Below are positions 2,306 through 18,706 of a stretch of DNA of 32,000 nt, piece after piece. The stretch is from positions 2,370,001-2,402,000 of the forward strand of contig CP126532.1 of NCBI GenBank assembly GCA_030167145.1. Direction: 5' to 3'. Position 1 is the stretch's first letter; every line of letters begins with the position of its first letter. Below the pieces are notes generated by a model. It had not been told where the DNA came from, ran no database searches, and saw only the letters and a list, made by a program, of their open reading frames with translations. Source of the stretch: Ktedonobacterales bacterium. GTDB lineage: Bacteria; Chloroflexota; Ktedonobacteria; Ktedonobacterales; JADMIN01. Position numbers and translations under genes: made by a program.

Positions 2306-5300
2306 TTACGCCTGCTGCTCGCGCACCAGACGCCGCAGGACGGCTTGCAGAATGCCGCCGTTGCGGTAGTAGTTGATGTCAATCGGGCTGTCGAGGCGGG
2401 CGATGGCGGTGAACTCGAAGGTTGAGCCATCTTCGCGGTGGACGCGGACGGTCATCTCCTGGCGCGGCTTTAGCTCGCCGGTGATGCCCACAATGTCGTA
2501 GGTCTCGCGGCCCGTCAGGCCCAAGCTTTCGCGGCTGGCGCCCGGCTGGAACTGAAGCGGCAGGATGCCCATGCCGACGAGATTGCTGCGGTGGATACGC
2601 TCGTAGCTTTCGGCCAGCGTGGCGCGGATGCCCAGCAGCAGCGGGCCTTTCGCTGCCCAGTCGCGCGAGCTGCCCGATCCATATTCTTTGCCAGCGATGA
2701 CCAGCAGCGGTGTGCCCGCCGCCTGATACTTCATCGAGGCGTCGTAGATGGTCATCTCGTCGCCATCTGGCAGATAGGCGGTGTAGTAGCCCTCTTTATT
2801 CGGTACGAGCATGTTGCGCAGGCGGATGTTGGCAAAGGTGCCGCGCACCATCACCTCGTGGTTGCCACGCCGCGCGCCGTAGCTGTTGAAGTCGCGGGCG
2901 GTGACGCCGTGGTCAATCAGATACTTGCCGGCAGGGCTGGTGGTGGGGATGGAGCCAGCGGGCGAGATGTGGTCGGTGGTGATCGAGTCGCCGACCGAGA
3001 CCAGCACCCGCGCGCCGGTGATGTCGCTGAGCGGCGCAGGCTCCGGGGCAAGACCGTCGAAGAACGGCGGCTTGCGAACGTAGGTGGAGTCGGCATCCCA
3101 CGAGAAGAGGCCGCTCCCCGCCTCTGGCAGCGGCAGCGCGCGCCAGTGTTCGTCGCCGTCGAAGACGTGTCCGTACTCCTCGGTGAAGATTTCGGGCTTG
3201 ACGACGCGGCTCAACGTCTCCTGCACCTCTTGCGGGGTGGGCCAGATGTCCTTCAGGTAGACTGGCTGGCCGTTGGGGTCTTCGCCAAGCGGATCGTGGG
3301 TCAGATCTGTATCCACTGAGCCAGCCAGCGCGTAGGCGACGACGAGCGGCGGCGAGGCGAGATAGCTGGCGCGCACCTGCGGATGGATGCGCCCCTCGAA
3401 GTTGCGGTTGCCGCTGAGCACCGCCGCGACGACGAGGTCGTTGTCCTTCACGGCGTCGGCCACCGGCTCTGGCAAGGGGCCGCTATTGCCGATGCAGTTA
3501 TGCACGGCGACAGTGCCCGCCACGAAGGCATGCGGGCCGTCCACCGCCAGATCGTAGACCGCGCGCTTTCCAGCTTCGCGGCGCTCCATCACCTGAAGCC
3601 CGAAGGTTGGCAGTTCGAGCGCGTCTTTGGCGACGCAGTAGCGTTTGGCGGGGTCTGTCTCGTCTCGTGAGCGCAGGGGCGCGAACCACTCGCGCACGCC
3701 AAGCTGGGTGAAGAGTTCGGCGGGCGAGGGAAAGCCGCAACTCTCGCGGTGCAGCGGCTGGAACTTGCGCGCGGTGGCCTGCGGGAGCCGTGAGAAGCGG
3801 TCGCTGCCTTCCAGTAGCGCATAGTGTGGCGAGACGACTGGCTCGCGCTCCATCAGTTCCACTGCCGCTTGCTGGCGTGCTTTGGCAAAGGACAATTCGC
3901 GGTTCTCCTGGTGCAATTCGTCCAGGCGGGCTGACATCCACAGGCGCTGCTGATGGATGCGGTCTATCGTGCGCCAGTAGACCGCCGCCGCGCTGGCGCG
4001 CAGCGCTTTGTCCACACAGTAGCGGAAGCCGACGCGCTCGACGAAGGAGAGGCCGTCGGGCAATTCCAGGCGCACCTCAATGCGCTCAATACCATCCTGT
4101 GCGGCGGGATACGAGGAGAGCGCGCGGCGGGTGGGATACTCATAGATGTTCGCCTTCTCGGTTTCCACACCACAGCGAGCTAGCAGACGGAGCAGATCAT
4201 TCATGACACGCTTGAGACTGTCCACGTGTTCGGGGAGGGCGCTCTGCGAATAGGCGGGTGGTTCGAGCGTCGCGTCGTCTTCGCCTTCACCCCAGCGATG
4301 TAGTACGGGGGTGTGGCCGTCTGCGCCGAAGAGGCCGCCGAGGAACTCGCGCACGACCGCAACGGGACAGGTATCATCCAGCACGAATGCGGGAAGCGTG
4401 GGAGCTTGTTGAATGCGCCGCCCGACTCGCACACCAGGCAGCGTGCGGATGGCATCGGTCAACGTCTTGGGCAGCACGATGGTCCACTTGCGCTCGTCGT
4501 AGCGCGTCGCGGCGGGGCGGCTGCCGGTAATCAATTCAATGTCGTTGAGCGCCATCTCGCGGTCTACAGCCTGGCCAACATGCACGCGGCCCTGGCCGGC
4601 GAGACTGATCGAGCCGTCGCTGAGCAAATGGCCGAGCAGGCGCGCAAATGCGAGCGTTCGCAGGCGTTCGTAGGGGGTATCCATCGTGAAGAGCAGGTCG
4701 CCAACGGGCAGCGCCCAGCCTGTTTCGTCGTCGCCTGGCTCATCCAGCGGCGCTTCGAGGCCGACGACCACACGATCTTCGCCCAGCGCCAGTTCATCGG
4801 CGCGCACCCAGCGTCCATCGGTAGTGAGGATCTGGTGATCGGGGGTGCAGTCCAGCGTGCGGCCGTCTTGCAAGACGAGCGAGATGCAGTCGCGCACGCC
4901 CTGGGCCATCGCTTCGGCTTGCCGCGCGATGCTCAGCGTGCCGTCGCCGGAGGGGGCGAACAGCGTGGCCCCACCCATGGCGGGCATCGCTTCGATGGGG
5001 CGCGTCGTGCCGTTGGCGAGCAGGACCGGAGTACCCTCGGCGATGCAGGTGGTACAGCCGTAGCCGACGGTATGGAAACGCAGCGCCTCTAAGAATGGGG
5101 TGAGGCCAGCGTTGTCGAGATAGTCGGTGACGGCGCGGGAACCGGGGGCGAGGCTGGTTTTGACGGCGGGGGAGACACGCAGGCCGCGCTCGACGGCGTG
5201 CTTGGCCAGCAGGCCAGCCGCGAGCATAACAGATGGATTGGAGGTGTTGGTGCAACTGGTGATGGCGGCGATGGCGACCGCGCCGTGGTTTAGGGGCACC

Positions 5301-6607
5301 TCTTCGCCATCCATCGCGACGATGGTCGTGCCGTTGGTCTTGACGTGCGCGCCCTCTTCCACGTCGTCGCTGATCTTGGCATCGAAGCGGTCGGCATAGG
5401 CGGTGCGGAAGTTCTGCTTGACGCCGCCCAGCGCCACGCGGTCCTGTGGGCGGCGCGGACCGGCGAGGCTCGGCTCGATGGTGGCGAGGTCGAGTTGCAG
5501 CAGTTCGTTGAAGGTGGGCACGGGGGTGTCATCGGTGCGGAAGAGGCCCTGCTCTTTGGTGTAGCGCTCGACGAGATCCACCAGATCGGCTGGGCGGCCA
5601 GTGAGGCGCAGGTAGCGCAGGGTCTCGGCGTCCACGGGGAAGAGGGTGGCGGTCGCGCCGAACTCTGGCGACATGTTGGAGATGGTGGCGCGGTCGGCGA
5701 GGCTGAGCGAGCTGAGTCCCACGCCCGCGAATTCGACGAAGCGCCCGACGACGCCATGCCTGCGGAGCATCTGGGTGACGGCGAGCACGAGGTCAGTGGC
5801 GGTCGCGCCTTCGGGCAGCGCGCCGGAGAGCTGGATGCCGACGACTTCGGGGGTGAGCAGGTAGAGCGGCTGGCCGAGCAGCACGGCTTCGGCTTCGATG
5901 CCACCGACGCCCCAGCCCAGGATGCCCAGGCCGTTGATCATGGTGGTGTGGGAGTCGGTGCCGACGAGGGTGTCGGGGAAGGCGTAGCCGTCGCGCGATT
6001 GGATGACTTTGCCCAGATATTCAAGGTTGACCTGATGCACGATGCCGGTGCCGGGGGGGACGACACTGAAATCCTTAAACGCTTGCTGCGCCCAGCGCAG
6101 CAGCGCATAGCGTTCGCCGTTGCGCTCGTACTCGCGCTGGACGTTGGCGCCGAAGGCGAGCGTGGAGCCGAACATGTCCACCTGCACCGAGTGGTCAATG
6201 ACGAGGTCGGCGGGGACCAGTGGATTGACGCGGGTGGGGTCGCCGCCCATTGCCTTGACGGCGTCGCGCATGGCGGCGAGGTCTACGACGGCGGGGACGC
6301 CGGTGAAGTCCTGCAGGATGACGCGGGCGGGCATGAAGGGCAGTTCTTCGGGGTCGCCGGGGGCGGGCTGGACACCGGGACGCCAGCGCGCGAGGGCGAG
6401 CACGTCAGCCTGACTGACGAGGCCCGGTTCGAGGTCGCTGTTGCGCAGCGCGTTCTCGACGAGCACGCGCAGGGTGAAGGGCAGTTGCGCCAGCGGCGTG
6501 ACGTTGGCGCTGGTGAGGGCATCCAGCCGGTAATACGTGAGGGGTCCGGCGCTCGTGGAGAGCGTCGCCCGCGCGCCAAAGGCGTTTGCGGTGTTCTGTG
6601 AAGCCAT
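2306..6607 (-). CDS. acnA: Aconitate hydratase A, intein-containing precursor (1433 aa; about 916 aa after predicted splicing)
   Basis: ATG at 6605-6607. Aconitase signatures: VILQDFTGVPAVVDLAAMR, VGTDSHTTMINGLG, ITSCTNTSNP (first Fe-S Cys), GYGCTT...CIGNSGPL (second and third Cys), and the swivel domain GKEYGSGSSRDWAAKG. The exteins are 5048..6607 (N) and 2309..3496 (C). Confidence 0.92.
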   Translation of the reverse strand: MASQNTANAFGARATLSTSAGPLTYYRLDALTSANVTPLAQLPFTLRVLVENALRNSDLEPGLVSQADVLALARWRPGVQPAPGDPEELPFMPARVILQDFTGVPAVVDLAAMRDAVKAMGGDPTRVNPLVPADLVIDHSVQVDMFGSTLAFGANVQREYERNGERYALLRWAQQAFKDFSVVPPGTGIVHQVNLEYLGKVIQSRDGYAFPDTLVGTDSHTTMINGLGILGWGVGGIEAEAVLLGQPLYLLTPEVVGIQLSGALPEGATATDLVLAVTQMLRRHGVVGRFVEFAGVGLSSLSLADRATISNMSPEFGATATLFPVDAETLRYLRLTGRPADLVDLVERYTKEQGLFRTDDTPVPTFNELLQLDLATIEPSLAGPRRPQDRVALGGVKQNFRTAYADRFDAKISDDVEEGAHVKTNGTTIVAMDGEEVPLNHGAVAIAAITSCTNTSNPSVMLAAGLLAKHAVERGLRVSPAVKTSLAPGSRAVTDYLDNAGLTPFLEALRFHTVGYGCTTCIAEGTPVLLANGTTRPIEAMPAMGGATLFAPSGDGTLSIARQAEAMAQGVRDCISLVLQDGRTLDCTPDHQILTTDGRWVRADELALGEDRVVVGLEAPLDEPGDDETGWALPVGDLLFTMDTPYERLRTLAFARLLGHLLSDGSISLAGQGRVHVGQAVDREMALNDIELITGSRPAATRYDERKWTIVLPKTLTDAIRTLPGVRVGRRIQQAPTLPAFVLDDTCPVAVVREFLGGLFGADGHTPVLHRWGEGEDDATLEPPAYSQSALPEHVDSLKRVMNDLLRLLARCGVETEKANIYEYPTRRALSSYPAAQDGIERIEVRLELPDGLSFVERVGFRYCVDKALRASAAAVYWRTIDRIHQQRLWMSARLDELHQENRELSFAKARQQAAVELMEREPVVSPHYALLEGSDRFSRLPQATARKFQPLHRESCGFPSPAELFTQLGVREWFAPLRSRDETDPAKRYCVAKDALELPTFGLQVMERREAGKRAVYDLAVDGPHAFVAGTVAVHNCIGNSGPLPEPVADAVKDNDLVVAAVLSGNRNFEGRIHPQVRASYLASPPLVVAYALAGSVDTDLTHDPLGEDPNGQPVYLKDIWPTPQEVQETLSRVVKPEIFTEEYGHVFDGDEHWRALPLPEAGSGLFSWDADSTYVRKPPFFDGLAPEPAPLSDITGARVLVSVGDSITTDHISPAGSIPTTSPAGKYLIDHGVTARDFNSYGARRGNHEVMVRGTFANIRLRNMLVPNKEGYYTAYLPDGDEMTIYDASMKYQAAGTPLLVIAGKEYGSGSSRDWAAKGPLLLGIRATLAESYERIHRSNLVGMGILPLQFQPGASRESLGLTGRETYDIVGITGELKPRQEMTVRVHREDGSTFEFTAIARLDSPIDINYYRNGGILQAVLRRLVREQQA
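3497..5047 (-). mobile_element. Class-1 intein with LAGLIDADG homing-endonuclease domain (517 aa, residues 521-1037 of the acnA ORF)
   Basis: Cys1 is in CIAEGTPVLLANG (codon 5045-5047). Block B is CTPDHQILT. LAGLIDADG motifs: LLGHLLSDGS (about 4607-4639) and FLGGLFGADG (about 4313-4345). The C-terminal block is VYDLAVDGPHAFVAGTVAVHN (Asn codon 3497-3499), followed by +1 Cys (3494-3496). Deleting it recreates the conserved GCTTCIGNSGPL. Confidence 0.88.
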
Positions 6608-7714: not shown

Positions 7715-8542
7715 GTGGATCCGCGAAACTTTTCACTGCCGAATCCACTCCCATCAGATATGTTTGAAGAATGGCCATTTCCGAACGGTTCGCGGCTGAA
7801 CGGCGCGGAGAGCGTGGCGCTGCCCACGCCAGAGGGCGCTGTCGCGCGCACGGGCGTGCCCGCGCCTGCCGCCGCCGAAGAGCTGGCGTGTGTCGCACGG
7901 GCACGCGCGGGCGATCAGGATGCGTTTGGCGTGCTGGTGCGGCTGTATCAGCGGCAGGTCTATCAGTTGGCGCTGCGGATGCTGCGCAACACAGAGGACG
8001 CGACGGAAGCGACGCAGGAGATCTTTCTGGCGGCGTGGCAGGGATTGTCGGGCTTTCGGGGGGACGCGCGCTTTTCGACATGGCTGTATCGCATCGCCTA
8101 TAACCACTGCCTGAAACTGGTGGAGCGGCAGAAGCGCGACGCCGCCGCGCGGGCCGAGTTGCTGGCCAACGCGGCACGGCAGCAGACGCCAGCAGGGGCG
8201 CTGAGCGCGAGCATGGCACACGACGCCGAGCGCGCGATGCGCGAGACGGTGCGCGACGAGATCGCCAATCTGCCGCCGAAGTATCGCGCGGTGCTGGTGC
8301 TGCGCCATTTGCAGGATCTAACCTACGAGGAGATGGCGGACGTGATGCGCGTGCCGATTGGCACAGTGAAGACACAGCTCTTCCGCGCCCGGGCGATGCT
8401 GAAGGAACGGTTGGAGCCGCTGGGGCGGATGCGCGAGGAGGGGGTGTCGCGGGTAGGCGAACTGCGGGCCGGGCTGGAGGCTGGGCTGCGCGGGATACTG
8501 GAGCGCGGGCGGCATACGCCGGAAGGAGGGAGCGAGTCATGA
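7715..8542 (+). CDS. ECF-type RNA polymerase sigma-70 family factor
   Basis: Region 2 is DAFGVLVRLYQRQVYQLALRML...EATQEIFLAAWQGLSGFRGDARFSTWLYRIAYNHCL. Region 4 is YRAVLVLRHLQDLTYEEMADVMRVPIGTVKTQLFRARAML. GTG start at 7715 is preceded by gggagggag. The stop overlaps the next gene's start (ATGA at 8539-8542). Confidence 0.85.
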   Translation: MDPRNFSLPNPLPSDMFEEWPFPNGSRLNGAESVALPTPEGAVARTGVPAPAAAEELACVARARAGDQDAFGVLVRLYQRQVYQLALRMLRNTEDATEATQEIFLAAWQGLSGFRGDARFSTWLYRIAYNHCLKLVERQKRDAAARAELLANAARQQTPAGALSASMAHDAERAMRETVRDEIANLPPKYRAVLVLRHLQDLTYEEMADVMRVPIGTVKTQLFRARAMLKERLEPLGRMREEGVSRVGELRAGLEAGLRGILERGRHTPEGGSES

Positions 8543-9126
8543 GTACCGATTGCCGGCGTACACGCACCGCGCTGCAACTGTATCTCGATGGGCGGCTCGA
8601 TCCCCGGCGGCTGGCTGGGCTAGAGACGCATCTGCGGGGCTGCGCCGCATGTCGCGAAGAACTGTTCGCGCTGGAAACATTGAGCGACTCGCTGGCCGAC
8701 CTGCGGATGATCGAGGAGCCAGCAAATCTGACGGCGCTGATCTTGACGCGAGTGGCGTCGTATGAGGTGAGCAAGCGCGCGAAGGCCGAGGCGGTGGAGC
8801 TGGCACGCGCGCAACGCCAGTTCGGGCCGCGCTGGGGCGATGCGGTGCTGGCGGCGGTGCTGGCGACAATGAGCACCGTGCTGTTCGTGTTGCTGGATCC
8901 GCAACTGCGCGAGGCCGCACCGATGGCCGCCGCGCGGGCATTCCCGAATGTGGTGGCGCTGCTGAGCATGCGCGGGCCTGGCTCCATCGCCTGGGTGGCG
9001 TGGGTGGTGTGGATCGCGACGGGGCTGTTGCTGACGCTGTGGCTGGCGGGCGCGGAGGTGCGCGCGTCGTGGCGGCGTTCGCTCTCGGAGCGGCTGGCGC
9101 AGTTGCCGCTGCCGCGTGGGGCGTAA
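8539..9126 (+). CDS. Membrane anti-sigma factor, zf-HC2 type
   Basis: N-terminal CRRTRTALQLYLDG...HLRGCAACREEL (H-x3-C-x2-C). Two or more TM segments (AVLAAVLATMSTVLFVLL; IAWVAWVVWIATGLLLTLWLAG). Translationally coupled to the upstream ECF sigma gene. Confidence 0.75.
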   Translation: MSTDCRRTRTALQLYLDGRLDPRRLAGLETHLRGCAACREELFALETLSDSLADLRMIEEPANLTALILTRVASYEVSKRAKAEAVELARAQRQFGPRWGDAVLAAVLATMSTVLFVLLDPQLREAAPMAAARAFPNVVALLSMRGPGSIAWVAWVVWIATGLLLTLWLAGAEVRASWRRSLSERLAQLPLPRGA

Positions 9127-9205: not shown

Positions 9206-10777
9206 CTAGCTGCCGTAGATGCTCCAGACGCCGTTCTGCAGGTGCAGGATGACAGTGTCGGCGGGGTAGGGTCCGATAATCCAGGCAATGGCCCATGCTT
9301 CATCGGGCGTGGCCTGGGCGACATCGGTGATGTAGAGGTTGGACGGGAAGCTGACGCGCTGCCATACGCCGTTCTGGTAGGCAAGGACGAAGGATCTAGT
9401 GGGTGGGGAGGCGGCTCCGCCAAAGAACGCGCCCTCGAATGCCCATGCGCCGCCCGATAACGTCGTTTCGATACGCATGTACATATCGCCAAACCCCTCA
9501 TACGCCTGAGCATTGGGTGGAAGCTCGGTGGGTGTCCATGAACTGCCATCATAGTGCAGCGCGTACACATGCGGCGAATTTCTGCTCACTCCCGAAATCC
9601 AGCCATCAGCCGGAGAGAGCATATTGACGAATACGATGTCAGTGAGATGTACAGACCTGCCCGCGATGCTCCACTGGCCCGACTGATAGTGGAGGATGTA
9701 GCCGCTGCCCACAGCCCAGCCTTCATCCGGCGAGACCATTGCGAGGTCAGCAAGGAATGGATGCCAGTACAACCAGAACTCTTGGGGGAAGGATGTGGGG
9801 AACACGATCTCAGACCAGACGCCGTTCTGGTAGTGAAGGATGTATGACGGGCCAGGGTTCACCTGTCCGCCGCCGACGCCGCCACCAGAGCAGTATTGCG
9901 CGCTGGCGGGGCAGGTGCTATTCGGCGCGGGCGCCGGTTGTGTGACGGCCCAACCGTCATCCGCCGAGAGCATCTGCACCTTGTGAATCTCGCCGTAGGC
10001 TGGCATGTCCACCTCAATCCACTGGCCGCCGGTGTAGTGGAAGAATACGCCATAGAAGTTCTTGTGTCCGCTGGCCCAGCCATCGGTGGGGGAATCCATC
10101 GAGATGCTATCCAGACGGATGCCCGGATGCACCTGGCCAACCATGTGCCACTGGCCGTTGTAGTAATGGACGAAGACTGCGCCATACACGCCAGAGCCTT
10201 TGCCCACAGGGTTGATCGTATTGCCAATAGCCCAACCTTCGATAGGCGAAACCAGGGCGATACGCTCCAGCATGGTGCCCTTGGGCAGCACGAGTTTGTT
10301 GGGGGGCAGGCGTGTTGGTGTGGGCTGCGCGCTGGCCGTCTCGGTGGCGGTGCGAGTGGTGCTGGTGGTGTGGCGGCTCAAGTGCGCGAAGCTGTTGAAG
10401 AGCAGCGCCGAAAGGCCGACCAGCAGCAGCGCGGCGGCGGTGACGTACCAGCCGTCAAGGCGACGCGGCGTTGGGCGCCGCGCGGGCATGGGCGCAAGTG
10501 GGGTGGGCTGCGCAGGTGTATCATCCGCTGGCGGTGGGGCGCTCCCGGCCATCAATGGCGGGGGCACGGCAGCGGCGAGGCGAGATGGGATCGGATGAAG
10601 GTCAATCGTGCTCATTAGCGGTATCAGCGCGCGGTAGTCGTCGAGGCGCTGGCGGCAGGCGGGGCAGGCGGCGATGCGCTCGTCCAGGCGGCGCGTGTCT
10701 TCGGTTGAGAGAAGACCGAGTGCGCCTTGCTCGACGAGGTCGTCGGTATGCGCGCAGGGTGGCGTTGGCTTGGTCAT
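9206..10777 (-). CDS. Single-pass anti-sigma factor with a seven-repeat beta-propeller-like ectodomain
   Basis: ATG 10775-10777 with RBS gaggaa. The N-terminus has a Cys-rich anti-sigma-like motif (CAH...ERIAACPACRQRL), followed by a Pro-rich linker and a TM helix (YVTAAALLLVGLSALLF). Seven repeats of [DE]GWA.G ... LHYxxGxW follow. It lies 67 nt downstream of an ECF sigma gene on the same strand. Confidence 0.7.
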   Translation of the reverse strand: MTKPTPPCAHTDDLVEQGALGLLSTEDTRRLDERIAACPACRQRLDDYRALIPLMSTIDLHPIPSRLAAAVPPPLMAGSAPPPADDTPAQPTPLAPMPARRPTPRRLDGWYVTAAALLLVGLSALLFNSFAHLSRHTTSTTRTATETASAQPTPTRLPPNKLVLPKGTMLERIALVSPIEGWAIGNTINPVGKGSGVYGAVFVHYYNGQWHMVGQVHPGIRLDSISMDSPTDGWASGHKNFYGVFFHYTGGQWIEVDMPAYGEIHKVQMLSADDGWAVTQPAPAPNSTCPASAQYCSGGGVGGGQVNPGPSYILHYQNGVWSEIVFPTSFPQEFWLYWHPFLADLAMVSPDEGWAVGSGYILHYQSGQWSIAGRSVHLTDIVFVNMLSPADGWISGVSRNSPHVYALHYDGSSWTPTELPPNAQAYEGFGDMYMRIETTLSGGAWAFEGAFFGGAASPPTRSFVLAYQNGVWQRVSFPSNLYITDVAQATPDEAWAIAWIIGPYPADTVILHLQNGVWSIYGS

Positions 10778-10844: not shown

Positions 10845-11540
10845 TCAGGCGTTTTCGCGGGCGTAGGCGTCGCGCAGCATGGCAAGGCCCCGGCTGAGCC
10901 GCGAGCGCACGGCGGCATGCGATACGCCAAGCTGCTCGGCGATCTCCGCGACGCTGAAGCCATGGGTGAGATAGAGCAGCAGGCTGGTGCGATAGCTGAC
11001 CGGAACCGCCCGCAACGCCCGGTTGAGCATCTCGGTGCGGGCGATGCGCTCCTCGAAGCCGCTCTCGCGCGAGCGCAGCGCGGCCTGCTCTGGCGCGGTT
11101 GCTTCGGCATCTGGTGTGGAGAGAAGTGGCGCGCTATGCAGGCGGTCGAGCGAGACCCAGCGTACTGCGCGCCGTCGTCGCAGCGCAGAATGCGCCTGAT
11201 TTGTGGCGATGCGGTAGACCCACGCGCGAAAGTATTCGGGCTGGCGCAGTTCATGGAGCTTGCGCCACGCCCGCGCGAAGACCTCTTGCGCGAGGTCGCG
11301 GGCGTGTTCGTCGTCATCCAACAGACGGGCGAGGTACGCGCGGATTGGCGGCTGAAAGCGTTCCACGAGCGTCGCGAACGCGGCTTGCGAGCCGCCGCGC
11401 GCCTGCTCGACTAGCGCCGCCACATCATCCACCGCCGTATCCTCTCCGCTGCCACGCATTGCCGCCACTGCCATCCGCACGCCGCTACCGCCGGATGCGG
11501 CAAGGTCGCCGGGGGCGTCGGGTCCGGCTGTGCTGGTCAT
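10845..11540 (-). CDS. ECF-type RNA polymerase sigma-70 family factor
   Basis: ATG 11538-11540 with RBS aaggag. Region 2 is AAFATLVERFQPPIRAYLARLL...LAQEVFARAWRKLHELRQPEYFRAWVYRIATNQA. Region 4 is YRTSLLLYLTHGFSVAEIAEQLGVSHAAVRSRLSRGLAML. Confidence 0.85.
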   Translation of the reverse strand: MTSTAGPDAPGDLAASGGSGVRMAVAAMRGSGEDTAVDDVAALVEQARGGSQAAFATLVERFQPPIRAYLARLLDDDEHARDLAQEVFARAWRKLHELRQPEYFRAWVYRIATNQAHSALRRRRAVRWVSLDRLHSAPLLSTPDAEATAPEQAALRSRESGFEERIARTEMLNRALRAVPVSYRTSLLLYLTHGFSVAEIAEQLGVSHAAVRSRLSRGLAMLRDAYARENA

Positions 11541-15131: not shown

Positions 15132-16445
15132 GCTTCATCGAATGCGGCGCGGAAACCCCGGCCTTCAGGGCTGGGGAGGAAGCGCCGCACTACTTTCGTC
15201 CTAGTATACCACACCTTCACACGCTGTATGCTAGGCTGCAAACATGAAGCAGAAACGCGCCTACCGCTATCGCTGCTACCCTACCCGCGCCCAAGCCGCG
15301 GTGCTAGCGCGGACGTTTGGCTGCGCGCGCTTCGTCTACAACTGGGCCCTGCGGCTGCGCATCGCTGCCTACGCTCAGCGGGGCGAACGCGTCAGCTATG
15401 CCGACACCTCGGCGGCGCTCACGCTGTTGAAACAACAGCCGGAGACTGTGTGGCTGAATGAAGTGTCCAGCGTGCCGACACAACAGACGTTGCGCCACCT
15501 CGACCGCGCGTTCCGCAACTTCTACGAAGGCCGCACCCAGTACCCTAGCTTCCACACAAAACACGGTCCGCAGGCGGCGGAATACACGACGTCCGCGTTC
15601 CGCTGTGATGCGCGGGCGCGCACCCTGACGCTGGCCAAGATGGACTCCCCGCTGCATATCCACTGGTCGCGCCCCTTGCCCGACGGCACGACCCCCACCA
15701 CCGTCACCCTCAGCCGCGACACTGCCGGACGCTACTTCGTGAGTATCCTGCTGGAAGCGGAGATTGCCCCGCTGCCGCAGGTTGCCGCGCAAGTGGGCAT
15801 AGACCTGGGCTTGCATGACCTGGTGGTACTGAATAGTGGTGAGAAGGTGGGCAATCCGCGTTTCTTCCAGCAGGATGAACAGCGGTTGGCCAAAGCGCAG
15901 CGGCGTCACGCCAAGAAGCAACGCGACTCGAAGAACCGTGAGAAAGCGCGCGTGAAGGTGGCGCGCATCCCTGCCCGCATTGCCGACCGCCGTCGCGATT
16001 TCCTGCATCAGCTCTCGACTCACATTATCCGTGAGAACCAAACGATCTGTGTCGAGAGCTTGCGCGTGAAGCAGATGGCGCAGCATCCCACCCTGGCCAA
16101 AGCCATCTCCGATGTGGGCTGGGGTGAGTTGGTGCGTCAGGTAGAGTACAAAGCCGCCTGGTATGGGCGGACCCTGGTCCGCATAGACCAGTGGTATCCT
16201 AGCAGCAAGCGGTGTCATGCGTGCGGGCATGTGCTAGATGACCTTTCGCTGGCTACGCGTCAGTGGACCTGCCCCGAATGCGGGACGGTCCATGACCGCG
16301 ACGTGAACGCCGCACAGAATATTTTGGCCGTGGGACTCACGGTGGCAGCCTGTGGAGAGACGGTAAGACCAGCAAAGGCTTCGGCCCGCGTTGGCGCGGC
16401 TCAGCGAAGCAGGAATCCCCTGGCTTGAGCCATGGGGAGGGTCAA
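15132..16445 (+). mobile_element. IS200/IS605-family element carrying only tnpB (IS1341-like, no tnpA)
   Basis: Same-strand subterminal imperfect hairpins have similar sequence. LE is ggaaaCCCCGGCCttcaGGGCTGGGGagg (15156-15176). RE is ggaatCCCCTGGCttgaGCCATGGGGagg (16417-16437), about 22/32 identical to LE. TTAC (15128-15131) flanks the proposed left end and TCAA (16442-16445) ends the right end, as in IS608-type elements. Exact boundaries are inferred. Confidence 0.6.
15244..16428 (+). CDS. tnpB: TnpB (IS605 OrfB family RNA-guided RuvC nuclease)
   Basis: Typical N-terminus: RAYRYRCYPTRAQAAVLARTFGCARFVYNWAL. RuvC-I is VGIDLGL and RuvC-II is ICVESL. Zinc finger: CHACGH...CPECG. RuvC-III is DRDVNAAQNIL. 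The characteristic C-terminus is ACGETVRP...SRNP. All catalytic acidic residues are present. Confidence 0.9.
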   Translation: MKQKRAYRYRCYPTRAQAAVLARTFGCARFVYNWALRLRIAAYAQRGERVSYADTSAALTLLKQQPETVWLNEVSSVPTQQTLRHLDRAFRNFYEGRTQYPSFHTKHGPQAAEYTTSAFRCDARARTLTLAKMDSPLHIHWSRPLPDGTTPTTVTLSRDTAGRYFVSILLEAEIAPLPQVAAQVGIDLGLHDLVVLNSGEKVGNPRFFQQDEQRLAKAQRRHAKKQRDSKNREKARVKVARIPARIADRRRDFLHQLSTHIIRENQTICVESLRVKQMAQHPTLAKAISDVGWGELVRQVEYKAAWYGRTLVRIDQWYPSSKRCHACGHVLDDLSLATRQWTCPECGTVHDRDVNAAQNILAVGLTVAACGETVRPAKASARVGAAQRSRNPLA

Positions 16446-16497: not shown

Positions 16498-17103
16498 ATG
16501 GCGGATGAGCGGGCGCAACGGACGGCGGATGAACCGCGCCGCTGCGAGTGGGCGACGAGCGCGCTGGGGATTCGCTATCACGATGAGGAATGGGGTGTGC
16601 CGCTGCATGATGACCGGCGGCTCTTCGAGTTCATCGTGTTGGAGGGGGCGCAGGCGGGTCTAAGCTGGGAGACGATTCTACGGAAGCGGGAGCACTACCG
16701 CGCGGTGTTCGATGACTTCGATGTGGCGGCGGTGGCGGCGTATGACGAACGGAAAGTGGCGGCGCTGCTGGCGGATGCGGGGATCGTTCGCAATCGCGCC
16801 AAGATCGCGGCGGCGATCCACAATGCGCGGGCGGTGCAGGCGATTCAGAGCGAGTTCGGCAGCTTCGATGCGTATCTCTGGCGCTTCGTGGGTGGGCAGC
16901 CGCACGTCAACGCCTGGCGGACGCTAGCCGAGATTCCGGCCAGCACAGCGGAATCCGACGCGATGAGCCGCGACCTGAAGCGGCGTGGATTTTCGTTCGT
17001 CGGCTCGACGATCTGCTACGCTTTGATGCAGGCGACGGGGATGGTGAACGATCATGTGGTGGCGTGCTTCCGCTATGCGGGGGCAGCACGGAAAGACAAT
17101 TGA
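16498..17103 (+). CDS. tag: DNA-3-methyladenine glycosylase I
   Basis: RBS gggaggg precedes ATG 16498. Tag signatures: RCEW...YHDEEWGVP, FEFIVLEGAQAGLSWETIL, IVRNRAKI, FVGSTICYALMQATGMVNDHVVACFRY. Confidence 0.9.
   Translation: MADERAQRTADEPRRCEWATSALGIRYHDEEWGVPLHDDRRLFEFIVLEGAQAGLSWETILRKREHYRAVFDDFDVAAVAAYDERKVAALLADAGIVRNRAKIAAAIHNARAVQAIQSEFGSFDAYLWRFVGGQPHVNAWRTLAEIPASTAESDAMSRDLKRRGFSFVGSTICYALMQATGMVNDHVVACFRYAGAARKDN
17029..17077 (+). repeat. Direct repeat copy 1 (49 bp, inside the 3' end of tag)
   Basis: caggcgacggggatggtgaacgatcatgtggtggcgtgcttccgctatg is identical to 18231-18279. The next about 12 nt are still about 8/12 similar between the two copies. Confidence 0.95.
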
Positions 17104-17109
17104 CGTGCG

Positions 17110-18129
17110 CTATTCGATTCCCGCGAGCAGCTTCGCGATTTGCTCAGGGGATGGCAATTCGCCTTGCAGCGCGGCGGGCGGCGAGGTGACGATATGGTAT
17201 GTTGCTACCCCGATGGGTTTGTTCGATTCCTTTAGAGCGTATTCTACAATGGTCTTGTCCTTATCTTTGCAGAGAATGATGCCGATAGATGGACTCTCTC
17301 CGGCAATCCGGGCTTTGTCATCTAGCAGCGCCAGATAGAACTGCATCTTGCCAACATACTCTGGTAGGAACTCGCCGATCTTGAGTTCCAGCGCGACCAG
17401 GCATTTCAGACGCCGGTGAAATAGCAGCAGGTCAATAAAATATTCCTTGTCGCCGACTTCGAGGCGATACTGGCTGCCGACCAGGGTAAACGCGCCACCC
17501 ATTTCACGCAGGAAGCTCTCGACATTTGCCAGCAACGCCTGCTCCAATTGTCGCTCGGTATGCTCGTCGGCCAGTTCCAGAAAGTCGAAGGTGTATTCAT
17601 CTTTCACCGTGAGCTTCGCTTGCTGGTGGATGTGATCAGGCAATGTTTGCTCGAAATTGGTCTGGTTGAGTAATGTTTTTTGATAGGTTTGGTTTTCGAT
17701 TTGAAGGATTAGTATGCTTTTAGTCCAGCCGAATTTTCGCGCCATGCGAAGATAAAACTCGCGTTCCAGCATGTCGCGGCACCGCTCCATGACGACGACG
17801 TTGTGGCTCCAACTAACTTCTCGCACCAGTAGCGCGAGTTGTTCCTGCTGGGTGTAAAGCTCATAAAATCGCTTCATACGCCACAGGTTGGTAGCCGAGA
17901 AGCCTGATATGCCAACCAGGTCAGCTTGCAAATCTCTTGCCAATGTTTCAACAATGGAGCCACCCCATGTACCTACAGCCAACCGCTCCACAATCATTCT
18001 GCCAATGTCCCAATAGAGCGAGATAAGCTCTCTGTTCACAGCTTTCAGTGCCGCATATTGAGCAGAGCGTATGCGCTCTTTAATTGCTTGGAGAAGCATA
18101 GGATAGTCGCTGTGTGCTGGTTCACTCAT
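17110..18129 (-). CDS. PD-(D/E)XK nuclease family protein (DUF1016 / YhcG-like)
   Basis: MSEPAHSDYPMLLQAIKERIRSAQYAALKAVNRELISLYWDIGRMIV resembles YhcG-family N-termini. The nuclease core is YFIDLLLFHRRLKCLVALELKIGEF (D...E-x-K), followed by GKMQFYLALLDD. Start at ATG 18127-18129. The listed ORF start at 18441 runs through the repeat and ridA. GC is visibly lower than in the flanks. Confidence 0.75.
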   Translation of the reverse strand: MSEPAHSDYPMLLQAIKERIRSAQYAALKAVNRELISLYWDIGRMIVERLAVGTWGGSIVETLARDLQADLVGISGFSATNLWRMKRFYELYTQQEQLALLVREVSWSHNVVVMERCRDMLEREFYLRMARKFGWTKSILILQIENQTYQKTLLNQTNFEQTLPDHIHQQAKLTVKDEYTFDFLELADEHTERQLEQALLANVESFLREMGGAFTLVGSQYRLEVGDKEYFIDLLLFHRRLKCLVALELKIGEFLPEYVGKMQFYLALLDDKARIAGESPSIGIILCKDKDKTIVEYALKESNKPIGVATYHIVTSPPAALQGELPSPEQIAKLLAGIE

Positions 18130-18230
18130 GGAGCGGCACCACTTCTTTGGATTCCCCCACCATTGGCGGGGGAAATAGAACGCGGGCATCTGTTGCTTGG
18201 CTATTTCAGTATATCTCCATATCTTCTTTT

Positions 18231-18279
18231 CAGGCGACGGGGATGGTGAACGATCATGTGGTGGCGTGCTTCCGCTATG
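18231..18279 (+). repeat. Direct repeat copy 2 (49 bp)
   Basis: Identical to 17029-17077 and flanks the far side of the DUF1016 gene. Confidence 0.95.
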
Positions 18280-18299
18280 TGGAGGTAGCAGAGCGATGA
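18231..18299 (+). pseudogene. Orphan 3' fragment of tag (encodes ...QATGMVNDHVVACFRYVEVAER*)
   Basis: It reads in the tag frame and ends at TGA 18297-18299, 15 nt before the convergent ridA stop. There is no upstream tag body. This is probably the original tag terminus displaced by the insertion. Confidence 0.6.
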
Positions 18300-18313
18300 A
18301 AGGCGACCATGTA

Positions 18314-18706
18314 TCAGCGGTCACTTGTGGCCAGGGCGATGAGGTCCATAACAATGAGCGCCCCAGGTTTGGCGAGATTGGAGACTTCAACCGTGGTGCG
18401 GGCCGGTTTATGCGTGCCGAAGATCTCTTCGTAGATTGCATTCATCGGCGCAAAGTCTTCCATATGTTTGAGATAGACGCAGACCTGGACGACCTGCGAC
18501 AGATCGCTGCCCGCCGCATTGAGAACTTCTCGCAGGTTACGCAAGACCTGCCGTGTTTGCTGTTCCACGCCCTCAACGAGAGTATCAGTAGCGGGATCAA
18601 CCCCCGCATGGCCGGAACAGAAGACGAAGCCATTGGCGCGTATGGCCTGTGAGTACGGGCCAAAGGGTTGTTGCGCCGCACTTGTGGAGATCGGTTGTAG
18701 CACCAT
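18314..18706 (-). CDS. ridA: RidA/YjgF/TdcF family reactive-intermediate deaminase
   Basis: Family pattern: PFGPYSQAIRANGFVFCSGHAGVDPAT...QTRQVLRNLREVLNAAGSDLSQVVQVCVYLKHMEDFAPMNAIYEEIF...PARTTVEVSNL. ATG 18704-18706 lies 8 nt after AGGAGG. The listed TTG at 18712 is less likely. Confidence 0.85.
   Translation of the reverse strand: MVLQPISTSAAQQPFGPYSQAIRANGFVFCSGHAGVDPATDTLVEGVEQQTRQVLRNLREVLNAAGSDLSQVVQVCVYLKHMEDFAPMNAIYEEIFGTHKPARTTVEVSNLAKPGALIVMDLIALATSDR

Follow-up and report, generated by a model that had tools for sequence, protein, structure and literature searches.

Surveys of inteins stress host proteins of replication, repair and nucleotide metabolism, and in one survey COG categories L and F account for about 83% of bacterial intein-containing proteins (PMC4760082). 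Here we describe an intein in a predicted aconitate hydratase gene, acnA, on a 32,000-nucleotide stretch of DNA from a soil-dwelling Ktedonobacterales bacterium (contig CP126532.1, positions 2,370,001 to 2,402,000, hereafter the window). Like the Mtu RecA intein (PI-MtuI), it has a class-1 Hint domain with Cys1, a TPDH block aligned to the RecA TPDH, a terminal His-Asn and Cys+1, and its splicing domain is 39-40% identical to the Mtu RecA mini-intein with a root-mean-square deviation (rmsd) of 1.7-1.8 A over ~101 columns. The two differ in host, RecA versus the Fe-S motif of an aconitase, and the measured likeness is limited to the splicing domain. Searches of the literature on inteins together with aconitase, aconitate hydratase, AcnA or the tricarboxylic acid (TCA) cycle, and of metagenomic intein surveys, returned no relevant paper, and the string 'aconit' is absent from the main text of Novikova et al. 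2016. This agrees with an earlier sequence-only reading of the window, which knew of no characterised aconitase intein. The element is of a canonical kind, in an unusual host protein and at a new insertion allele. We consider it highly likely that it is a class-1 LAGLIDADG intein that undergoes standard splicing and then homes into intein-less acnA alleles.

The 1433-codon acnA open reading frame (ORF), its 517-residue insert, the junctions and the motif positions given in the sequence-only reading were all exact on re-derivation (Table 1). The precursor is identical to a public protein, P0121, titled 'MAG: Aconitate hydratase [Ktedonobacterales bacterium]' (MAG, metagenome-assembled genome) and encoded on a 5.07-Mb contig. 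Its host portion is predicted to be AcnA: over its full length the precursor scores above the cutoffs of two AcnA equivalog models (NF006757, 1336 bits, cutoff 686; TIGR01341, 1277 bits, cutoff 945), and the Pfam Aconitase match (E=1e-159) is broken into two stretches flanking the insert, with Aconitase_C downstream. The insert lies between GYGCTT and CIGNSGPL, with GCTTC starting at precursor residue 517 and VHNC at residue 1035. It begins with CIAEGTPVLLANG and ends with FVAGTVAVHN, after which the aconitase resumes as CIGNSGPLPEP. The spliced AcnA has 916 aa and a mass of 98.6 kDa.

Removal of the insert joins GCTT to CIGNSGPL and yields GCTTCIGNSGPL, in which the Fe-S ligand motif is whole again. 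The restored site aligns without gaps to human IRP1 (GCMTCIGNSGPL, structure 2b3x) and to intein-free AcnA relatives (83% identity), which bears out the claim that the insertion falls within the ligand motif. Residues C452, C518 and C1038 of the window protein align to positions 436, 502 and 505 of the 2b3x chain, which we take to be the IRP1 ligands C437, C503 and C506 in standard numbering, an offset of one being assumed because the chain is 888 aa long. These three cysteines of IRP1 are the ligands of its [4Fe-4S] cluster. The assignment agrees with 3sn2, an iron-responsive element complex construct that carries Ser at the first two ligand positions. From the IRP1 alignment it follows that the +1 nucleophile of the intein would be the third cluster ligand and Cys(-3) the second, and the alignment places the intein between Thr(-1), which is Thr520, and the third ligand cysteine. 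The spliced enzyme has exactly three cysteines, all of them cluster ligands, and the intein has eight. At the DNA level, codon positions 1 and 2 around the insertion site are essentially invariant and variation is seen at wobble positions only.

The insert is confirmed as a canonical class-1 intein of the Hint superfamily with a double-motif LAGLIDADG homing endonuclease. The class-1 catalytic set is complete (C1, T68/H71, H516-N517 and C+1), and the hallmarks and the two LAGLIDADG acidic residues listed in the sequence-only reading are all present and invariant or nearly so among 77 homologues. Hint profiles recognise the insert: searched alone, it reaches 36.6 bits with Pfam Intein_splicing (PF14890; gathering score 35.8), and the NCBIfam scan gives 20.6 bits for TIGR01443 intein_Cterm (cutoff 15.6 bits). 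In the same scan, the nuclease portion of 'intein-containing RtcB family protein' matches intein residues 126-404 (E=1e-10). A sequence search of the PDB aligned the first 95 residues with the Mtu RecA intein (E=5e-8). An AlphaFold2 (AF2) model of the intein, built from an alignment of 11 family members, reached a predicted local distance difference test score (pLDDT) of 81 and a predicted template modelling score of 0.84. Its top PDB matches in Foldseek were the full-length LAGLIDADG inteins TliVMA, PhoVMA, PI-SceI, PI-PfuI and PI-TkoII (E=1e-12 to 2e-7), and its Hint part matched RecA, DnaB and DnaE mini-inteins with an rmsd of ~1.8 A. The nuclease part is modelled as duplicated alpha-beta-beta repeats, whose core matches I-Tsp061I (TMt 0.61) and I-DmoI (TMt 0.55-0.60).

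Table 1. Coordinates of the acnA precursor and its intein in the 32,000-nucleotide window.
Feature	Window position	Strand	Details
acnA precursor ORF	2306..6607	(-)	1433 aa, 155.6 kDa
N-extein	5048..6607	(-)	residues 1-520; C-terminal end FHTVGYGCTT
Fe-S ligand Cys452, in N-extein	5252-5254	(-)	
Cys518 (-3 position), in N-extein	5054-5056	(-)	
Whole intein	3497..5047	(-)	517 aa, 57.1 kDa; precursor residues 521-1037; class 1, embedded LAGLIDADG homing endonuclease
N-terminal Hint (splicing) segment	4748..5047	(-)	intein residues 1-100; Mtu RecA intein match
Cys1	5045-5047	(-)	
Block B TPDH	4835-4846	(-)	T68-P-D-H71
LAGLIDADG homing-endonuclease domain	4016..4747	(-)	intein residues about 101-344; AF2, Foldseek, invariant Asp
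LAGLIDADG motif 1, LLGHLLSDGS	4610-4639	(-)	D144
LAGLIDADG motif 2, FLGGLFGADG	4316-4345	(-)	D243
Helical accessory region, basic	3614..4015	(-)	intein residues 345-478
C-terminal Hint segment	3497..3613	(-)	intein residues 479-517; ends His516-Asn517
Cys+1 (C1038)	3494-3496	(-)	splicing nucleophile and third Fe-S ligand by alignment
C-extein	2306..3496	(-)	residues 1038-1433 and stop codon; N-terminal start CIGNSGPL

The sequence-only reading had left about 240 residues behind the second LAGLIDADG motif without any recognised motif. This stands in that the tail has no Pfam or PDB match, but about 100 of these residues belong to the second LAGLIDADG half and about 125 form a conserved helical region. 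In the AF2 model the second alpha-beta-beta half runs from residue 244 to ~340, and most of the stretch 345-478 is helical, its long helices spanning 345-381 and 387-401. This accessory region is the sole basic portion of the intein (isoelectric point 8.7), and its ratio of nonsynonymous to synonymous substitution rates (dN/dS), 0.12, marks a constraint equal to that on the rest of the intein. Residues 330-485 modelled alone gave a pLDDT of 82, and the PDB search with this tail returned no significant fold match (best E=3.7), nor any structural match to PI-SceI, TliVMA/PhoVMA, PI-PfuI or PI-TkoII; the Pfam scan was likewise without a match for the region. We take it to occupy the place of the extra Stirrup domain of PI-PfuI, which follows the nuclease and precedes the C-terminal Hint segment, and from this position we would tentatively assign it an accessory role in DNA binding. 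It is not peculiar to the aconitase intein, since it aligns to the intein in RPB2 of Cedratvirus lena described below.

The window intein belongs to what is, on sequence grounds, a large family of aconitase inteins with hundreds of public sequences at the same site. With the intein as query, a protein search yielded 283 matches, the best 120 of which are 51-79% identical and come from MAGs of many phyla; all of these 120 that have recorded Pfam domains carry aconitase domains. At least 134 GTDB species representatives encode a relative, and we compared the best 80 of these loci, all from MAGs, the closest being 78% identical to the window intein. In 76 of the 80 loci an automated site pattern (GC[T/M][T/V/S]^C...[H/S]N^CIGN, with ^ at the junctions) picked out an intein of 513-544 aa that is intact and free of stop codons, occupies the identical position and has open exteins to either side. 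Inspection by eye added L018 and L056, giving 78 of 80 in frame; the remaining two are cut at a contig end (L019) or carry a frameshift close to the C-terminal junction (L079). For the insertion allele suggested as possibly new in the sequence-only reading we found no paper, and the allele is neither rare nor private. By record title, the Chloroflexota hosts include Ktedonobacteria, Chloroflexia, Herpetosiphonaceae and Limnocylindria. Further titles name Blastocatellia and Pyrinomonadaceae (Acidobacteriota), Gemmatales (Planctomycetota), Steroidobacteraceae and other Gammaproteobacteria, Alcaligenaceae, Omnitrophota, Eiseniibacteriota and Abditibacterium, and four hosts are titled as archaeal MAGs (Nitrososphaerales, Nitrosopumilales, Thaumarchaeota). 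One member is already named 'aconitase A/intein/homing endonuclease' by JGI.

Some members depart from the common form. Several variant alleles (among P0030, P0022, L030, L036 and L045) end in Ser-Asn in place of His-Asn, and the N-extein edge reads GCTV or GCMT in some members. P0030 has a 409-aa intein whose N-terminal Hint segment lacks residues about 27-135, block B included, and is probably either splicing-dead or a chimeric assembly.

That the source is a MAG, and that many gene calls for homologues end or start inside the insert, could speak for a lineage-specific aconitase domain or an artefact of assembly or annotation. We give this practically no credence. The insert holds apart two Fe-S ligands that need a three-residue spacing, it has the Hint and LAGLIDADG folds with all catalytic residues, and it recurs in frame at an identical site in independent assemblies, namely in the 78 of the best 80 loci counted above. 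The truncated calls are annotation errors: P0045 (L080, JAFAKO010000240.1), an 872-aa 'hypothetical protein', begins at a Met within the intein, although its frame is open for another 591 codons upstream. Recurrence at the site, the fold and the P0045 frame effectively refute this explanation. We also rejected an atypical split intein whose N-fragment would be very short, as the frame is continuous over both junctions in the genome loci; where P0013, P0015 and P0036 look like split genes, this reflects the edge of a contig or, on very long contigs, an apparent frameshift.

Public gene calls for homologues are often truncated inside the intein, further examples being P0014 in L037 and P0041 in L066, and many JGI calls label the C-terminal pieces '3-isopropylmalate dehydratase small subunit'. 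With truncated or split records of this kind, aconitase may look missing or broken in metabolic reconstructions from MAGs.

From its anatomy, fold, conservation and population pattern we infer that the element splices and cuts DNA, in the following way. The 155.6-kDa precursor would be unable to form the aconitase active site. Cys1, aided by Thr68 and His71 of block B, would make a thioester at Thr(-1), and attack of Cys+1 on this thioester would give the branched intermediate. Cyclisation of Asn517, aided by His516, and the S-to-N shift would then release a 98.6-kDa AcnA with GCTTCIGNSG and a free 57-kDa intein. The free intein would act as a site-specific endonuclease on intein-less acnA, at the GYGCTT/CIGNSG DNA (...GGCTACGGCTGCACCACC followed by TGCATCGGCAACAGCGGC...), and would be copied into the cut allele by recombinational repair. 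Spread through soil Bacteria and Thaumarchaeota-labelled Archaea could be explained by the near-invariant Fe-S motif, a target conserved across phyla and domains.

Conservation is even along the intein. All 77 sequences compared carry C1, T68, H71, D144, D243 and N517, and position 516 is His in 74 and Ser in three. Median dN/dS, an approximate measure at this divergence, is 0.10-0.13 throughout, in the two Hint segments, the two halves of the nuclease and the accessory region alike (overall about 0.11). The history of the intein is incongruent with that of its host. Pairwise identity averages 65% among inteins and, in a measure not strictly comparable, 62% among their aconitase exteins, and inteins are the more alike in 1402 of 1891 pairs. 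The window and a Pyrinomonadaceae locus share 72% in the intein and 53% in the extein, and the archaeal-labelled and Chloroflexota loci share 64-71% and 51-55%, respectively.

Among the 120 AcnA proteins closest to the window extein, 30 match the strict intein pattern and 88 are intein-free; P0160 and P0184 carry the intein by inspection and were excluded from the extein tree. Lengths are bimodal, ~900-960 or ~1373-1475 aa, and no mini-intein was found in this set. Intein-free alleles are up to 83% identical to the window extein, and the cultured Ktedonobacteria Thermogemmatispora, Thermosporothrix and Dictyobacter have intein-free AcnA. In a quick neighbour-joining tree built from the 118 exteins that were scored, a minimum of 23 gains or losses is required to account for the 30 tips with an intein, compared with a mean of 27 for shuffled labels. 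The presence of the intein among the closest AcnA relatives is nearly random. Such patchiness, together with the incongruence of intein and extein, speaks for repeated horizontal transfer.

Composition adds to this picture. The GC content of the intein is 65.7% and that of the extein 66.7%, and the sequence-only reading had taken such host-like GC to suggest long residence. At third codon positions (GC3) the intein (0.77) matches the neighbouring genes (0.75-0.83) and lies below its extein (0.85-0.86); over 62 loci intein GC3 tracks that of the extein (r=0.76) and is lower in 55. This fits partial amelioration after transfer and by itself is no proof of long residence, which, the evidence being mixed and patchiness and incongruence pointing to transfer, we did not adopt. 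In three of the four archaeal-labelled loci (L043, L055 and L028) intein GC3 is 0.59-0.72 versus 0.82-0.91 in the extein; because the inteins lie so far below the aconitase that they interrupt, this suggests recent arrival from a lower-GC donor. Constraint, incongruence and near-random presence together argue for active homing and not for long vertical residence, and the window intein is apparently still mobile.

Several points weigh against active mobility and the broad host range. The dN/dS ratios are only approximate because dS is ~1, near saturation, and intein and extein identities can be compared only loosely. The extein tree was built from representatives of 90% clusters from MAGs, and mis-binning or chimeric contigs could inflate both the apparent patchiness and the host range. 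Archaeal identity comes from record titles only, one of the loci lying on a 1.17-Mb contig, and Pfam matches in the genes flanking L043 (KdpC and HAD only) are uninformative on this point. No relative more than 80% identical to the window intein was found, so recent mobility in the window's own lineage is unsupported. The insert also scores below threshold with Pfam LAGLIDADG_3 (19.3 bits, E=0.0014; gathering score 22.5).

The last two points would suit a splicing-competent but immobile relic, with a dead endonuclease, kept only because the essential active site would not survive imprecise loss. Such a relic is the usual fate in the intein homing cycle. Here we regard it as quite improbable: both catalytic Asp residues are invariant, dN/dS in the nuclease and accessory regions (0.11-0.13) is the same as in the splicing blocks, mini-inteins are missing among the 120 closest AcnA proteins, and the many gains or losses among the 118 relatives would require mobility.

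Around acnA, Rfam and promoter/terminator scans gave nothing useful. The gene converges with one for a dynamin-like bacterial GTPase of 721 aa (65-2230, + strand; Dynamin_N E=1e-24), the two 3' ends being ~75 bp apart. Farther along the window, an extracytoplasmic function (ECF) sigma factor gene (7715-8542, +) has its stop overlapped by the start of a zf-HC2 anti-sigma gene (8539-9126, +). A 523-aa ORF without a Pfam match (9206-10777, -) and a second ECF sigma gene (10845-11540, -) follow. A TnpB-like protein of 394 aa and IS605 OrfB type (15244-16428, +) has HTH_OrfB_IS605, OrfB_IS605 and Cas12f1-like TNB domains; no TnpA was seen adjoining it, and the window as a whole gave no match to an Rfam family, a guide RNA for the TnpB-like gene not having been searched for. 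A gene for a YhcG-type PDDEXK nuclease (17110-18441, -; DUF1016_N and YhcG_C) adjoins the genes for the TnpB-like protein and for a Tag methyladenine glycosylase (16498-17103). Its GC3 is 0.58, compared with 0.75-0.83 in its neighbours, and it was probably acquired horizontally in recent times.

A widespread and apparently active intein in an Fe-S enzyme of central metabolism widens the known host range of inteins. That its +1 nucleophile is itself a cluster ligand supports the notion that inteins, irrespective of pathway, target those active-site codons that are best conserved. A LAGLIDADG nuclease with a nearly universal coding target may also interest meganuclease engineers and serve to mark horizontal transfer in soil communities.

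In overall architecture the aconitase intein resembles PI-SceI, TliVMA/PhoVMA, PI-PfuI and PI-TkoII, all bipartite, with the Hint domain split by a LAGLIDADG nuclease; sequence identity to them is just 12-16%. Closer kin came from a HMMER search run exhaustively over 1.84 billion cluster representatives, in which 1320 relatives had E<=1e-3 and 439 reached E<=1e-30. The best relatives outside aconitase are 30-40% identical over all 517 residues and lie in very long proteins, several of them multi-copy. A Pfam scan of seven such proteins identified five as RNA polymerase Rpb2 and one as a family-B DNA polymerase (PolB), with the intein domain alone matched in P0264. One is annotated 'intein containing DNA-directed RNA polymerase subunit RPB2 [Cedratvirus lena]' (WIL04223.1), and its intein aligns end to end with that of the window (36% identity, E=4e-96), including both LAGLIDADG motifs and the helical accessory region. 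The RPB2 and PolB inteins differ from the aconitase intein in residing in information-processing proteins of viruses, archaea or eukaryotes, and in their 30-40% identity to it, compared with 60-79% within the aconitase allele. Nine long proteins (P0242, P0245-P0248, P0255, P0260, P0304 and P0338; 1.9-2.9 thousand amino acids) hold two to four separate intein copies of the same clade; those scanned are RPB2 or PolB. These relatives hint that giant viruses or archaea may be a reservoir of this intein type. As a side reading, kinship with giant-virus RPB2 inteins might make consortia of amoebae, viruses and bacteria an arena of cross-domain intein exchange.

The junction cysteines invite comparison with inteins under redox control, and with it a different role: a domesticated regulatory intein whose conditional splicing gates AcnA maturation, which could coexist with selfish mobility. 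A Cys-3/Cys1 or Cys1/Cys+1 disulfide, or binding of Fe or Zn, would stall splicing, and reduction would free active AcnA. Cys(-3) and Cys1 of the precursor, in Cys(-3)-Thr-Thr-Cys1, make up a CxxC pair, with Cys+1 as a metal ligand; Cys(-3) is invariant at every locus, and the Hint domain has two additional cysteines, Cys54 (invariant) and Cys67 (kept in at least 90%). Yet Cys(-3) is invariant because it is the second Fe-S ligand, and as the host enzyme dictates both Cys(-3) and Cys+1, the CxxC pair is expected from position alone and is no evidence of selection for regulation. The patchy, selfish-like distribution, with intein-free closest relatives and cultured Ktedonobacteria, and a nuclease that is fully conserved and not decayed, also speak against it. 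We therefore hold a regulatory role to be rather unlikely, and equally so the idea that splicing at the ligands of an oxidation-labile [4Fe-4S] cluster, gated by redox state, iron or zinc by way of a native CxxC redox trap, makes AcnA maturation a post-translational sensor of TCA-cycle entry; if true, it would couple redox or iron status to that entry in soil bacteria and archaea.

MoaA is a radical-SAM Fe-S enzyme and SufB is part of the Fe-S assembly machinery. The Pab MoaA and Mtb SufB inteins, grouped with the redox-controlled inteins, thus share with the aconitase intein hosts tied to Fe-S chemistry. As in the aconitase intein, a -3 Cys forms a CxxC with Cys1 in the engineered Ssp DnaE intein, where a Cys-3/Cys1 disulfide acts as a redox trap, and in the native Pab MoaA intein, which is controlled by such a disulfide; in the Pab PolII intein a Cys1/Cys+1 disulfide blocks splicing (PMC3922620). 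Flanking cysteines that double as cluster ligands were not found described for any intein. Unlike the redox-controlled inteins, the aconitase intein is flanked by cysteines that are cluster ligands of the mature enzyme, and its natural Cys-3/Cys1/Cys+1 set offers a test case for redox- or metal-conditional splicing in a classic sensor of oxidative stress and iron.

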